NCBI GenBank assembly: GCA_903861305.1
Contig: CAIOTT010000056.1
Location: 5,918-69,917, forward strand
DNA length: 64,000 bases
Direction: 5' to 3'
Origin: Candidatus Omnitrophota bacterium
GTDB lineage: Bacteria; Omnitrophota; Gorgyraeia; Zapsychrales; Fredricksoniimonadaceae
In this document: positions 31,029 to 37,000 of the stretch, piece after piece
Position numbering within the stretch: the stretch's first letter is position 1
How the letters are laid out: each line of letters starts with the position of its first letter
The notes under the pieces: model-generated
What the model was told of the DNA's origin: nothing
Databases searched by the model: none
What the model saw: the letters and a program-made list of their open reading frames with translations, nothing else
Program-made: the position numbers and the translations under genes

Positions 31029-34000
31029 TCAATGCGCCCCGAGGAACCCGGCGAGGTCGTTCAGAGGCCGGACCGCAATGATCACCGGCGCGATGCCGGC
31101 CGCGTCCCGGTATTTTTCCAGCGCGGCGGGATCAAAATGAAAGAAGCCGCCGCCATCCATGGCGCCAACGGCCATGACACGATCGACCGGGTTCAGGTCG
31201 ATACCGCCGTCAACCGCGGCCCGATTGAGCGGGTGATCCAATGAATTCCCGCCCATGCTATCCGGTACATAAACTGAATAAAAATACGCAAGTCCTTTCT
31301 GCCCATCCGCGACAATGCTGTCTGGCACATCGGGTTGTCCATACTCCTGCAATTTTAACGGGATCAGATATTTCCTGTCTTTCTTGATCCTGACCCAGGC
31401 GATCTTCATCTCTCCCAAAGGATAGAGAGACACCTGCACATTCTTGTTCTGCCTTGCCAAAGACTTAAAATATTCCCCGACTTTTTTCATATTCTTGATC
31501 GCCGCCACTTTCCAAAGTAAAGGATCGGTCTGGTGGCCTGACGCATATTGGTCCAGCCATATTTCGTTTGTCAGCATCGACAATAAATATCCATTGTCGT
31601 TGCAGTAACCCGTGAGGATCCGGTTCAAGACCCCTACCTTGTCCTGAAAATACGGCATCACCGATGTTCCCATGACGACCAGATCGAATTTCCGGTCTAA
31701 CGATGGTAGTTCCTGGTCCAGGTCCGCCAATTTCAAATTTTTCCTGACATGAACAAACGCATCCCTGGCGCGTTCTTCACCGGCATTGCCGAAAGAGCCA
31801 AAGGACGCCATAAAATGGGCTTCATCCAGAAATAACCCGGGTTCTTTATTGATCGCATGAACATCCACGAATTTTCCGAATTTACGTTGGGCCTCGACCG
31901 CCTCCAGGCCGCGGCCAACACCAACAAACAACACCTTCACAGGAGGCCCGTCGAACCGCCTGGCCCTCAAGAAATTCGAAAATATTTTTGCGCCAATAAG
32001 TTTTGTCAACTGGCCGCCATAGACATTGTCCAGTTCCCGATAGGTACGGGAAATGTACTTTTCATCTTTATACGGCGTTTCAGACGCGTTGAGCATTCTC
32101 CCCATACCTCCCGGCATCCGGCTGTTCGTTGCCTGCGTCGTTTCGGCCCCATCAACCGTACCATCCGTACTCTCCGACACCGCCGCTTCTCTTGAATAGA
32201 ACGAGTACTGCATGGGAAACTCATTCTGGACATCCCTCCTTGAACCTATGAATTTTAACGGGATCAAATATTGTCCCCTTTTTTGTATGTTGATCCATCC
32301 CAAACTCGCCTCATGGAAACTAAAACCCACGTCCACATTCTTCCTTTTCTGTTTGAATTCACTAAAGAATTCAACAAGATCATTTATATTGCCTTCGAAT
32401 TGCGGCACCCGCTCGGTCATCAGCTCATGCAAGCTAAAATGATCTTCAAGGAAATAACTCCTTAACTGTATTAAGGCAGACAGAAAAGACAATAAATGCC
32501 CATTCTTTTTGCAATACTGTTCCAGCATATCGTTTAGGACACCAACCTTGTTCTTAACATACGGGATCGTTGCAAAACATAGAACGACCAGATCGAATTT
32601 TGTTTCAAACGACGGCAACCTTTCATCAAGATCCGTTATCCTGAGATTTTTTCTTACATGGTCGAAAGCAGCCTCCGCGGATCCCCTGTGAACAGGGTCA
32701 CCGGCACCATGCGCCCCGAGATAGCTCTGCTTGTCATAAAACAATCCGTCTTCTTTATTGATCGCATACACCTCCACGAACCTTCCATAGCGGCGTTTGG
32801 CCTCTATCGCCTCAAGCCCCCGGCCAACACCCACGAACAGTATCTTTACGGGCGCAGGCCTGCCCCACTTCTTGCCTGGAATGAATGTTGAGAATATTGA
32901 ATTCACGATCATCTTTGTTAATTGATGATCATAAAAATGATCCAAAAGTTCGAAAGAACGATCCAGGCTTTCTTCTTCGAGATACGGCGTTCTTTCTGCC
33001 GGTGCCATGGCGACAGCGGCTGGATCAGCTTCTTTCATACCCGCATTTATCTCCTCGATCCTGGCAACAACATTCGCCATGAGGTCTTCAACCCCCTGGA
33101 CATGGATCGCCTTAAGGCCGGCCGACGTGGCGGCATTGACCTCTTTCTCAAGACTTCCTCCTATGGAAACAACAGCTCCCGGCCGGAATCCCAGCGACTC
33201 GGCAATGTTGCTGAAGAACTTAGGGTCCGGTTTCCCGACACCCATGCTGCCTTGCGTATAGATCCGGTCAAATACCTGGTCCAGGCCAAGCTTTTGCAAT
33301 ACCTGCTTCACATGCGCGTCACTCGCGTTGGATGCAAGCACAAGATGATAGGATCGATGCAAACGCTGCAATAACGCGGCCAGTTCGTCATTCGGTATCA
33401 GGCCAGCATCGGTAATGTCCAGGTCGTCGATCGCTTTGTTGAATGCCTTCATATCGAGGCCAAAATATTTTACAACCCCGCTCAACGAATCGAGTTCAAT
33501 ATATTTTGCACGGACATCTTTCTCAACAAGGCCTTTATCATTCTCAAGGCAAAACCGCACCATGGCCTCGACTTTCAGCCGCTTGACCGAATCCGACGCA
33601 TACAGCGTATCCGCCAGGTCGAACACAAGCGCTTTAACGGGTCTATCAAGGAGAGATCCCCGATCAGCACGGCCTTCTTTAAGGCCTTCAGCATGATCAC
33701 CTGCCTCCCCGGTTGTTGTGGCGGTCTGATCCGAAAGGTCCCATTGCATGACATAGGGAAAACCCCTGTGCTTCCCGGACCTCGCGATGGAGACCCCTCT
33801 TTCGGAGCTGACAAATCTCTCATAGAATTTCTGGGCATTATTCAGGTCCGAAGGGAAATAATACAGTCCGGAATACCCCAGGGACCTCACATCATGGATA
33901 ACACGGCTCAACATGATAGAACCCAAGCCTGCCGAAGCTTTGCCCTTCAGGGGATCCGCTTTGTACCTGGGATCGACCGCGACCAGGGACAAGCCCACAG

Positions 34001-37000
34001 AATCACCTTCAAGCGTCCTGACCATAGCAAATCCCGCGATCTTTCCTTCCGCATCCTGCAGAAGAAGCCATCGGCATGACGGATCCCCTAATAATGCCTC
34101 AACCTCGATCTTCGACAGAAGTTCCAAACCATAGAAATTCACTGTGAGGATACGGTAAACCTGGTCCAGGACACTGTTGGCATCTTTGTCATTGTCCAGA
34201 TCAAAGATCCTGGAATGAAAACGATGATCAGGATCAAGCTCCGGATCGCTCAAGGAAGGAAAGAAAACCCCAACATAGCCCAGTGGAACATTGAGCAACG
34301 ATCGTTGACGCATCAACCCTTGCAGTTCGGCCAACTGGTCCGGTGCAAGGCTGGCTTTGACCCTCTCAAAGTCACTTCTATACCGTGCAGGACGAGCGGC
34401 GAGCGTATTCATGAAGAAAGCTGCTCTTGAAAATGCTTCCTTGTCTGTCGGCGCCTTCCTGATCTTCTCCAGAACAACATGAACCGCATAGGAAGTATTG
34501 AATCTTGTCAGAAAATAGGCGAGCGCGGGTTCATTATCAAGGTGCTTGATCAGATAAAGCGCCAGCTGATCTTTCTGCCCGTCATTGAGGACGGAACTGA
34601 TCTTATCCAGGACAGTGAAGTCCCAATAGCCGGGAATTTGATCCTGTGTAAAAAGCCCCTGCCGCGACCTGAACTTATCCTCGATATATCCACGGGCATC
34701 TTCCATCAGATACCTCAACAGGGAATCCCCCTCCCTGTAAGTGAATGCATTCACCCTTCGTTCAAACTCTTCCCACGGGGCGACGCAGATCCTGCCCTTT
34801 TCAATATCCGGACGATAATACCTCTTGAGCATTTCAACGACCCTGCTCACACTATCAACATTAACGATCCGGGCAATATCGGCTGTTGTCAGCGTGTTCC
34901 CGGGCCTTAAGTCAGCCAACAGATAGCCGATCCTTTCTTTGATAACATCCTCCGGCACGGCCCATTCAATGGCATAATCGTCCTTTGTGTACTTGTTCGT
35001 CCTGACAAGAGAAATATCTTTCCGGCCTGAAGATCCGATATATTTCCTGTAAAAACCAATGGCGTTATTCTTGTCCGACGGCTGAAAGTATATTCTGGAA
35101 TATCCGAGAGTTTTAACATCACGGATAACCCGCTCCAATATCCTTGAACCAAGCCCCATCGACCCTCGCCCCTTCACGGGATCCGCCCTGTACCTGGGAT
35201 CTATGGCCAGCACACCTAATGTCACTGAACCATCATTCATATCCAGGATCAAGGCAAATCCGGCGACATGCCCTTCACCGTCCTCAACAAAGAGCACCCT
35301 GTGGCCTTCATTGTTAAGTACCGCATAGATGGCGTCCAGCGATGGCGTTTCTTCAGTACTAAAGCTCTTTAAAAGGATATTGTGCATCTGACGGCCGATA
35401 TCCTCCACGTCCTCCTTCCGATCAATGTCCCATATTTTGAATCGGAACTGTGTTGGCGCCGACAATAATTCTCCCGTCAGACCGGTGTCAACCGGATCAA
35501 TGGCCGTGTCTTGCAGTTCAGGGAAAAATACCCCCGCATACGCCAGAGGGATCGCATTGAAAGGCCGTTGGCGCAAGACCTCCCTCATGTGAACCACCTC
35601 ATCCGGCGGAAGGGCATCCCTGATCTTTTCAAGATCATGCTTATCTTCCACAGGACGCCCTGCAAATATCCGCAAGAAGACGCTGTTTGGATGCCGCACT
35701 TCATCTTTGTCCTTAAAATTCCTTATTTCCTCCAGGCTCGCATGGATACAATAAACTGTTTTGAACTTCGCCAGGATACATATGCGTGCCGTTATATCGA
35801 CATCTGTTCGCATCAAATAACGCGCAAATTCATCTTTCTGCTCCTCATTCAGGATGCTGCTGATCTTGTCGAACACGGGATATTCCCAATAATGCGGCTT
35901 CTGACCCCTTGAAAAAAGAAACAACACATCACGATCAAACTCCTTATTGATATAACCCGCCGCATTTTTCAAAAGATACTTCAACAAAGCATCCGAGGTT
36001 TCATGTGAGAAAGAATTCACCTTGGCCTCAAAGTTCTTCCACGCAAGGGCCTGTGCCCCATCTCCATCCGGCATGATGCCATCCCCATGGACTTCCACCA
36101 GGAAAGAATTCTCCGGCGTCAACGCCGCCGCGTCAATGTGATCGGTCATGGCCAGATCGGGCACGATCTGGACACCGCCCGCGAAATATTTCCTCGGGAC
36201 CGTTTCCTGCGTGGCCGGATCGTATTCCTCTCGGATAAAATTGTAGGCGCCCTTCTGGAAGGCCTCGACATACCGGCCCCAGATCTTTTCGGCTTCCTTC
36301 GGGTCGTCGATGGTGACACCCTGCACCTTGTTCTGGCCCACGTAAAAACCAAGTGGTGAATTGTTCAGCGCACCCATGACCTTCTTTTTATACCAGGTCG
36401 CGAGGATCAGGGAATTGTAGACCTGGCGGAGCCGGGCGAAGTTCTTGCCTTCGTTGATCTCTTTTTCGAGGACGGGGATGATGATCTGGCGGATGATGCA
36501 TTTGGCCAGATCCGACCCCCTCCCATTCCCTCCCCACAAGGGGGAGGGTTCTATTTGTGCATGATCTTCAGCTAAATCCCCGGCCGGAGCCGGGGGCTCC
36601 GCCATGTCCTTCTGATGGGACATGGCTACGTAATCGCTCTCCAACATCACCTTCAGCCGTGCCTCTACCACATAAGCTACCGCTTCATCCGAGGATTTGT
36701 TACCTGCTACCTTCGGTTTCTCATAGACCACGGCTTTTGCGGGGACGATCCAGACCTTGTTGAAGGTGTCCACCGGGATGTCCGTTGTCCCGAATTTCTC
36801 CCGGGCCTGTTTGTAGATCTCGGCCCAGAATTTCTTTCCCAGACTCTGCTCGGGATACATCAGGCTTGAGGTGAGCTGCTTCAAGAGATAATCCTGCGCC
36901 AGAAGGTCGCGGCCCATTTCCGTCTGGCCAAAGGCTTCCGGCACGATACGGTCCTTCTCATACGGTGATAAATTCACCCACATCTCCCCGGCGGGAACAG

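Follow-up and report, generated by a model that had tools for sequence, protein, structure and literature searches.

Omnitrophota are abundant, uncultured, ultra-small bacteria that are suspected of being predators or parasites. In a stretch of 64,000 nucleotides of Candidatus Omnitrophota DNA (the window, 64 kb), we analyzed the gene for a large protein, designated P4, whose central part had been read in an initial annotation of the sequence as a string of enzyme folds. This part, the cargo (31260–36060), lies inside one intact open reading frame (ORF; 31029–37271, minus strand), which encodes 2,080 residues from an ATG start codon (MRSWISS...). The identical protein, with the same start and the same neighbours, was found on an 86,410-bp metagenome contig in ENA, and P4 is a singleton in 90% clustering. 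Residues are numbered from the Met of the ATG codon, residue i beginning at nucleotide 37271 − 3(i − 1).

From the N-terminus, P4 consists of a signal-peptide-like stretch, a head (N-dom), two helical+GNAT modules (M1 and M2), a HAD-IA domain, two S-adenosylmethionine (SAM)-methyltransferase-like modules (R1 and R2), and a tail (C-dom) (Table 1). The modules are joined by linkers of 15–30 residues, which on inspection are of low complexity and rich in Gly, Thr, Asp, and Glu. Alignment of M1 (residues 411–775) with M2 (residues 834–1180) gave 38% identity over 360 residues (E = 4e-91), and that of R1 with R2 gave 43% identity over 256 residues (E = 3e-70). The two members of each pair are adjacent, and each pair is therefore attributed to a tandem duplication, as had been proposed. 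Judging from the alignments, the M and R duplications are real, yet old or fast-diverging.

Enzyme-type modules in the cargo of P4

When the modules were scanned separately, both GNAT domains matched Acetyltransf_1 (PF00583), with 33.4 bits (E = 6e-8) for GNAT1 and 25.0 bits (E = 2.5e-5) for GNAT2, and both exceeded the gathering cut-off of 20.7 bits. The helical part of about 200 residues that precedes each GNAT domain is included in the M1/M2 alignment and gave no Pfam match. Both copies possess DPRY[RK]ADP[VL]KG[RK]xSxGLGS, which corresponds to beta-4 followed by a glycine-containing pyrophosphate loop. By inspection of the two sequences, the G-x-G of motif A is kept, with an insertion of about nine residues before it compared to the canonical Q/R-x-x-G-x-G/A, and motif B (NNAxxFY) has its Tyr in both copies (NNAIGFYRKY in GNAT1 and NNAQKFYERF in GNAT2). 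The GNAT modules are probably catalytic. No relative of the helical part of M1 turned up in 79 loci, in 187 proteins, or in two metagenome scans. A local hidden Markov model (HMM) of M1 and M2 gave one weak match, to the GNAT part only, among 600 sequences, and a single-sequence phmmer search of the GNAT domain against the PDB sequences gave no match. A word-index homolog search returned nothing with M1–M2 or with R1 and is uninformative, since P4 itself is in the collection. The 58-residue segment that follows M1 (residues 776–833, ...TTADIARIVNVDSVSRVVEMLKR...) appears helix-turn-helix-like by eye; Pfam lent no support to this impression.

At 50% clustering, an exhaustive HMMER scan with a profile of R1 and R2 yielded 67 relatives, of which 25 had E < 1e-10. 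Submission of a 28-sequence R-family profile to the PDB gave 47 matches, nearly all of which were methyltransferases (E = 2.6e-6 to 1e-4): 3cc8 (E = 2.6e-6) and 8k76 (E = 9e-6), and also phosphoethanolamine, juvenile-hormone-acid, and arsenite methyltransferases. Among the 28 family members, 13 matched Methyltransf_25, nine Methyltransf_11, and eight Methyltransf_31 in Pfam, the best E values ranging from 2e-7 to 5e-6. The family profile led us to regard the R modules as class-I SAM-methyltransferase-like, in agreement with the two Rossmann modules of this kind that had been noted, although the single modules remained below the Pfam cut-off. The profile match spans beta-3 to beta-5 in small-molecule and lipid class-I SAM methyltransferases (Methyltransf_11/25/31; 3cc8, 8k76, and the phosphoethanolamine N-methyltransferase 4krh) and motif I to beta-5 in arsenite methyltransferases. 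The R modules share with the class-I enzymes the GxGxG motif, the beta-3 Asp, and the "FDxV" at beta-4, and they differ from them in an N-terminal "PY...LD..Y" helical extension and a C-terminal extension of about 100 residues ending in "IPL".

The conservation of the R family was examined in 70 diverged members (20–45% identity). The three glycines (G60, G62, and G64) of VGVGRG, which is present in both R1 and R2, are kept in 69 of the 70 members. Arg63 is kept in 59, Glu86 in 55, Asp126 in 63 (with Asn in six more), Asp139 in 66, Tyr150 in 63, and Gly170 in 67, and all of these residues are found in R1 and R2. Asp126 and Asp139, the latter belonging to "FDLVV", align with the "GD" and "FD" positions of the methyltransferases in 3cc8 and 8k76. 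Two features are atypical: a Val stands where an acidic residue is expected ahead of GxGxG, and the usual acidic position of beta-2 is occupied by Asn (AINKE), the Glu two residues on being the one kept in 55 members. The relatives of the R modules occur in long proteins of up to 6,658 residues, beside PfkB kinases, metallophosphoesterases, PrmA-like methyltransferases, and GNAT domains, and only five of the 67 carry the head found in P4. Taken as a family, the R modules form a distinct methyltransferase sub-family, as delimited by the profile, that recurs in many long proteins, and they are probably catalytic.

The HAD domain, which had been placed at about 33080–33650, was identified at 33096–33638 by Pfam Hydrolase (PF00702; 61.4 bits, cut-off 26.4, E = 1.9e-16) and HAD_2 (E = 4.8e-14). 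It passed the cut-offs of two NCBIfam models of subfamily IA, TIGR01509 (HAD-IA-v3; 30.6 vs 29.4) and TIGR01549 (HAD-IA-v1; 27.3 vs 23.3). The best sequence matches were 2gfh (E = 9.7e-9) and TIGR02253 (E = 1.5e-18), and the nearest similarity was to the group of CTE7, pyrimidine 5'-nucleotidase, and N-acylneuraminate-9-phosphatase (NANP), far below the NCBIfam equivalog cut-offs. The P4 domain has in common with this group the nucleophile Asp, the Ser of motif II, and the Lys of motif III, the last two being located in LASNAS and GKPDP, which align with LLTNG and EKPAP of NANP. In motif I, for which DxDx(T/V) is canonical, DLADT stands against DLDNT of NANP; the nucleophile is kept, the general acid/base Asp+2 is replaced by Ala, and an Asp is found at +3. 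In motif IV, where the acidic pair of GDxxxxD serves Mg2+, GGSLEKE stands against GDTLETD, the first Asp being replaced by Gly and the second by Glu. DLADT and GGSLEKE are unchanged in the 74%-identical HAD domain of an ortholog at locus L001 (L001:9890–13513), described below, and DLGDT is found in a 38%-identical relative (P0002, a partial Omnitrophota protein). The retention of these variant motifs in relatives at both distances argues for constraint on a conserved alternative arrangement, not for decay. It suggests that DL[AG]DT, in which the second Asp has moved along by one residue, marks a separate HAD sub-type instead of an isolated case of degeneration. We doubt that such a site supports the canonical Mg-dependent chemistry of phosphatases; the domain would be a hydrolase of divergent mechanism or else a module that binds phospho-ligands.

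The motifs quoted in the initial annotation (VFDLADT, SN, GKPDP, GGS...E, LFVGVGRGLEA, and FDLVV) are all present, and the domain searches supported five enzyme folds, as expected for an enzyme cargo and not for adhesin repeats. Neither a lack of support for the folds nor a loss of all catalytic residues was found. With regard to the catalytic residues themselves, the cofactor motifs of the GNAT and methyltransferase modules, which would bind acetyl-CoA and SAM, and the nucleophile Asp, the Ser, and the Lys of the HAD domain are retained, whereas the Asp+2 and the first Asp of motif IV of the latter are missing. These two losses, the nine-residue insertion in the P-loop of the GNAT domains, and the Val and Asn substitutions of the R modules raise the alternative that the modules are pseudo-enzymes without catalysis, retained in a surface coat or adhesin for ligand binding or as structural units; giant Omnitrophota ORFs have been proposed in the literature to serve as coats or adhesins. 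We consider this alternative unlikely, because the residues mapped to SAM contacts are nearly invariant in the diverged R family, both GNAT copies keep the glycines of motif A and the Tyr of motif B despite their 38% identity, the HAD variants are kept in relatives and thus appear constrained, and Pfam detected no adhesin-type repeats.

A family of proteins with a common head and tail

Five large ORFs in the window, including P4, share the head (about 350–370 residues) and a tail of about 60–65 residues. The heads of the other four are 40–52% identical to that of P4, and the identity reaches 40–68% for the shared N-terminal region of about 350 residues. The middle parts of the four paralogs are unrelated; searches of Pfam and NCBIfam found two AvrB/XopAH copies, a weak NUDIX match, and beta-propellers, and one middle part gave no matches. 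Neither the head nor the tail matched any family in Pfam or NCBIfam or any sequence or fold in the PDB, and a profile search of the PDB sequences with the head also gave nothing. A model of the head predicted by AlphaFold2 (AF2) from a 66-sequence alignment had a predicted local distance difference test score (pLDDT) of 73.8. The top Foldseek match of the head, NheA, had a template modelling (TM) score of 0.1, which is no evidence for a ClyA-like fold.

Homologs of the head number at least 1,294, and those that are named belong almost without exception to Candidatus Omnitrophota/Omnitrophica; the homologs listed are proteins of about 600 residues or less. A scan of the GTDB species genomes with the head gave at least 586 confirmed matches, and those listed are all from Omnitrophota metagenome-assembled genomes (MAGs) or from MAGs labelled "uncultured Planctomycetales". 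The best 79 of the at least 586 loci derive from some 41 MAGs, in which multiple copies and tandem arrays are frequent. These loci contain 95 head-carrying ORFs with lengths from 404 to more than 3,763 residues. In 65 of the 71 complete head-carrying ORFs, a tail profile placed the tail 0–33 residues from the C-terminus. The tail of P4 reads GGIDLN...FHFDPAALE...GIAPVII.V.PL..L.GFLG, and the family pattern is KGGIDL...FNLDPA..L...GF.PVI..I.P...L..FLG.

A Pfam census of 75 cargo regions of the family found 72 families, among which are methyltransferases (five members), HEAT, HATPase_c, Glu/Leu and Ala dehydrogenases, GNAT, PPDK_N, SNF2, AvrB, alpha-amylase, TPR, and HAD. The cargo between head and tail is thus very diverse and consists mostly of cytoplasmic-type enzymes. 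No description of the head/tail family was found in the searchable literature, in which the tail motif "GGIDL" retrieved irrelevant papers only. The sequence searches identify it as an uncharacterised family that is lineage-specific and multi-copy in Omnitrophota.

In one of the paralogs (B in Table 1), two stretches match AvrB/XopAH (PF05394; E = 3.2e-15), a type III effector family of plant pathogens, while the NCBIfam XopAH match on this paralog is below the cut-off. The occurrence of AvrB/XopAH in an environmental Omnitrophota genome is unexpected, and its copy number differs between this genome and that of the ortholog at L001 (L001:16075–21093).

Table 1. Positions of the parts of P4 and of the other head/tail proteins in the window
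Feature	Position	Strand	Residues	Remarks
P4 coding sequence	31029..37271	−	2,080 + stop	ORF list and translation
Signal-peptide-like N-terminus, MRSWISSIILAAFLVNTFLPPSYA-Q	37200..37271	−	1–24	read from sequence; hyphen, putative cleavage site
Family head, N-dom	36087..37199	−	25–395	
M1 helical sub-domain	35442..36041	−	411–610	aligns with M2 counterpart; no Pfam match
GNAT domain 1	35034..35390	−	628–746	PF00583
Inter-module segment	34773..34946	−	776–833	58 residues; only after M1
M2 helical sub-domain	34212..34772	−	834–1020	duplicate of M1 helical part
GNAT domain 2	33813..34160	−	1038–1153	PF00583
HAD-IA domain	33096..33638	−	1212–1392	non-canonical motifs I (DLADT) and IV (GGSLEKE)
R1, class-I SAM-methyltransferase-like	32187..33008	−	1422–1695	family profile vs solved methyltransferases
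R2, class-I SAM-methyltransferase-like	31275..32096	−	1726–1999	43% identical to R1
Family tail, C-dom	31032..31226	−	2016–2080	
Head/tail paralog	11027–16549	+		shared N- and C-terminal regions
Head/tail paralog B	23451–27617	−		shared regions; two AvrB/XopAH stretches
Head/tail paralog C	27593–30940	−		shared N- and C-terminal regions
Head/tail paralog	48143–55699	−		shared N- and C-terminal regions

Gain and loss of modules at a syntenic locus

Locus L001, from the Ca. Omnitrophica MAG MJ-2014-D6_bin-075, is syntenic with the window, having the Mrp/Mbh-type genes, a TamB-like gene, and three consecutive family genes, and the proteins of its flanks are 62–97% identical to those of the window. 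The P4 ortholog at this locus possesses only 1,208 residues, which comprise the head, a 237-residue module, the HAD domain, one R module, and the tail. The identities to P4 are 78% for the head, 74% for the HAD domain, and 72% for the tail, and the single R module is 54% identical to R1 and 45% identical to R2. The 237-residue module, which is unrelated to the P4 cargo and without a Pfam match, is located where P4 has the two helical+GNAT modules, and R2 is extra in P4. The next two genes also differ from their L001 counterparts by whole modules (C by about +400 residues, and B in repeat number). The absence of both GNAT modules from the ortholog indicates that cargo modules are gained and lost, and the comparison of the two loci showed that such turnover takes place between close relatives. 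Since R2 is the outlier among the three R modules, the R duplication may be older than the species split, with a later loss in L001, or R2 may have diverged faster. Another protein, P0126, was tried as an ortholog of P4 because of its near-equal length (2,081 residues) and was rejected, having only a methyltransferase module in common.

At the junction between C and B (about 27590–27620, minus strand), the window lacks 166 bp compared to L001:15870–16300, between two "GGTGCCG" microhomologies. Lost in the gap are roughly the last 14 codons of the upstream tail domain and the spacer between the genes, as well as the downstream gene's start codon and signal peptide, so that the AvrB-carrying paralog B has none. 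This paralog is possibly a pseudogene; alternatively, an error in the assembly could account for the gap.

Possible export and destination of the cargo

The N-terminus of P4, as read by eye, has an Arg at position 2 and a hydrophobic core of about 17 residues, followed by PPSYA-Q, and no further segment of the protein exceeds the hydrophobicity threshold for a transmembrane helix. Of 91 family ORFs, 88 likewise have an N-terminal hydrophobic stretch ahead of the head. From these features we infer that P4 would be exported via Sec and its signal cleaved. The location of all five domains on one ORF was confirmed, while the exported nature of the polypeptide, also claimed in the initial annotation, is a reading of the signal-peptide-like N-terminus.

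We somewhat favour, on the whole, the interpretation that P4 is a Sec-exported carrier whose head and tail bracket exchangeable enzyme modules, and that it belongs to a lineage-specific, multi-copy Omnitrophota family. In this scheme, a Sec-type signal peptide, a head of about 370 residues, and a tail of about 65 residues would bracket a freely exchangeable enzyme array, which in P4 would have been assembled by old tandem duplications and module insertion. The head and tail may provide common targeting, anchoring, export, or translocation, and the cargo enzymes may act on or in a partner cell (host or prey), or at the surface of the producer. Acetyl-CoA and SAM are available only inside cells, and the cargo would therefore be useful inside another cell or possibly at an interface fed by one. 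A role in a partner cell would parallel the proposals made for giant multi-enzyme proteins and would agree with the predatory or parasitic lifestyle proposed for Omnitrophota.

The main rival to this interpretation is that P4 is membrane-tethered by an uncleaved N-terminal anchor and faces the cytoplasm of its own producer, where the cargo would draw on the acetyl-CoA and SAM of the producer to carry out modifications of a regulatory or metabolic kind. All of the cargo enzymes need cytoplasmic cofactors, the cargo of the family is mostly of cytoplasmic type (Glu/Ala dehydrogenases, PPDK_N, SNF2, and HATPase_c), and no secretion genes are present in the window. We nevertheless regard this cytoplasm-facing arrangement as less likely. 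The Arg at position 2, the core of about 17 residues, the PP, and the small-x-small site SYA-Q are such that the positive-inside rule places the remainder of the protein outside, and the same N-terminal layout recurs throughout nearly all of the family ORFs mentioned above. In addition, a conserved head of 370 residues and a strictly C-terminal tail are hard to fit to a simple cytoplasmic scaffold.

Several results weigh against the interpretation of P4 as an exported carrier. The dehydrogenase, SNF2, and HATPase cargo of the family would be equally expected if the bulk of the protein stayed in the producer cytoplasm, the evidence for export is the by-eye reading of the N-terminal sequence, and the 64-kb window was found to contain neither pilus genes nor genes for secretion of type I, III, or VI. 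A Foldseek search with the head model against the PDB gave no match better than E = 0.58, and the role of the head is thus a guess. As for the cargo, the HAD domain lacks two of its four catalytic acidic residues, and the helical+GNAT module appears to be an orphan within the sequence sets scanned, so that its conservation is not assessable. Scored individually against Methyltransf_25 (cut-off 27), R1 reached only 14.7 bits and R2 only 14.4 bits, and the AF2 model of R1, from a 2-sequence alignment, had a pLDDT of 42.9; its order of strands and helices is Rossmann-like, at low confidence. A Foldseek search with this low-confidence model gave mainly methyltransferases as top matches (TM scores of 0.2–0.4), which is weak corroboration only.

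The neighbours of P4 are a TamB-like gene, genes of an Mrp/Mbh-type complex, a hydrogenase, transporters, and a helicase. The TamB-like gene (37339–38682, minus strand; PF04357, E = 4.7e-17; 433 residues as called on the source contig) is located directly upstream of P4, and its position is kept in L001 (about 8000–9230). We considered it as a possible marker of a dedicated export system; L001 is the one locus with which its position was compared, and we make no such claim. The regions 1–9000 and 38642–45655 of the window represent an anaerobe background, with an [FeFe]-hydrogenase with a NuoF-like subunit, HydF, radical-SAM maturases, and the Mrp/Mbh-type membrane complex. The G+C content is 0.49–0.53 in the cargo of the family genes (10000–16000 and 24000–36000) and 0.59–0.61 in the housekeeping neighbours, namely the hydrogenase, the Mrp/Mbh-type complex, and the transporters.

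Comparison with toxins and with giant proteins of Omnitrophota

The cargo had also been likened to multi-effector toxins. The MARTX toxins of Vibrio have conserved N- and C-terminal regions around a variable, recombining array of effector domains, and P4 resembles them in this architectural logic only. A strict reading of P4 as a MARTX-type toxin, with type I secretion, a pore formed by the terminal regions, and effectors freed by autoprocessing, would draw on the conserved termini around a variable enzyme array and on the AvrB/XopAH effector-type domains of a neighbouring paralog, and we hold it to be highly improbable. Pfam detected in P4, at E ≤ 1, neither RTX or glycine-rich repeats nor Peptidase_C80, C39, or any other protease domain. 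The signal read from the sequence is N-terminal and of Sec type, in contrast to the C-terminal type I signal, there is no relationship in sequence or fold, and the window contains no genes for the ABC transporter, membrane fusion protein (MFP), or TolC of type I secretion. The short, low-complexity linkers have no recognisable processing site, so that the idea of autoprocessing between modules found no support by inspection or in Pfam. What remains of the likeness to toxins is the analogy of conserved ends and a variable array. Polymorphic toxins (Rhs/CDI) have a variable C-terminal tip and an immunity gene, whereas the variable part of P4 is internal, its C-terminus is the conserved tail, and the next gene downstream is another family member and not a small immunity gene.

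A closer parallel is found within the phylum itself. Among Omnitrophota proteins that reach or exceed 10 thousand residues, a co-occurrence "Module 1" consists of methyltransferase PF08241, HATPase_c, GNAT PF00583, and HAD PF13419, and within-protein domain repeats, derived from old duplications, are the rule (bioRxiv 10.64898/2026.06.07.730766). GNAT, methyltransferase, NUDIX, and HAD_2 are common domains of the giant "Archaeovorins" (West-Roberts et al. 2023, bioRxiv 10.1101/2023.11.21.568195). Proposals in the literature assign such proteins to an extracellular location or to a role as effectors. P4 resembles these proteins in having methyltransferase, GNAT, and HAD domains on one polypeptide, repeated domains from old duplications, and an N-terminal signal or membrane segment, and its paralogs and family members contain NUDIX, HEAT, HATPase_c, TPR, and PPDK_N. 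It differs from them in size, being 2,080 residues long against at least 10 thousand (tens of thousands in West-Roberts et al.), in having no internal transmembrane helices, and in belonging to a separate family defined by the 370-residue head and the 65-residue tail. Since the repertoire of methyltransferase, GNAT, and HAD domains has already been published for Omnitrophota, the cargo of P4 represents, in small format, a phenomenon already described. The new part, as far as the searchable literature goes, is the head/tail family, whose members carry this repertoire at lengths of 0.4 to about 4 thousand residues. In sum, the enzyme string observed in the initial annotation is confirmed and the interpretation given there is partly supported; the function of the string is putative, and "Module 1" of Omnitrophota is the better comparison, P4 being a smaller version of the giant proteins and not a new kind of toxin.

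A more far-reaching reading, which we put forward tentatively and consider possible though not likely, is that the head and tail define an undescribed, Omnitrophota-wide cargo-delivery family. Its Sec-exported carriers, without a fold relative in the PDB, would bring interchangeable cytoplasmic-type enzymes (acetyltransferases, methyltransferases, dehydrogenases, AvrB-like domains, and others) onto or into host or prey cells, with modules shuffled between paralogs and orthologs. Such a family would be similar to MARTX and polymorphic effectors in function and unrelated to them in mechanism.

The giant multi-enzyme proteins of Omnitrophota are a standing puzzle, since their size and poor conservation put them out of reach of study. 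The head/tail family presents the same repertoire at 0.4 to about 4 thousand residues, with well-conserved ends, many paralogs in each genome, and module swapping between close relatives. The destination and targets of the enzyme strings would thereby become experimentally tractable, as single modules should be expressible and the head and tail can serve as handles for localisation and comparative genomics. P4 adds to this repertoire a conserved non-canonical HAD site, DL[AG]DT, and a distinct methyltransferase sub-family.

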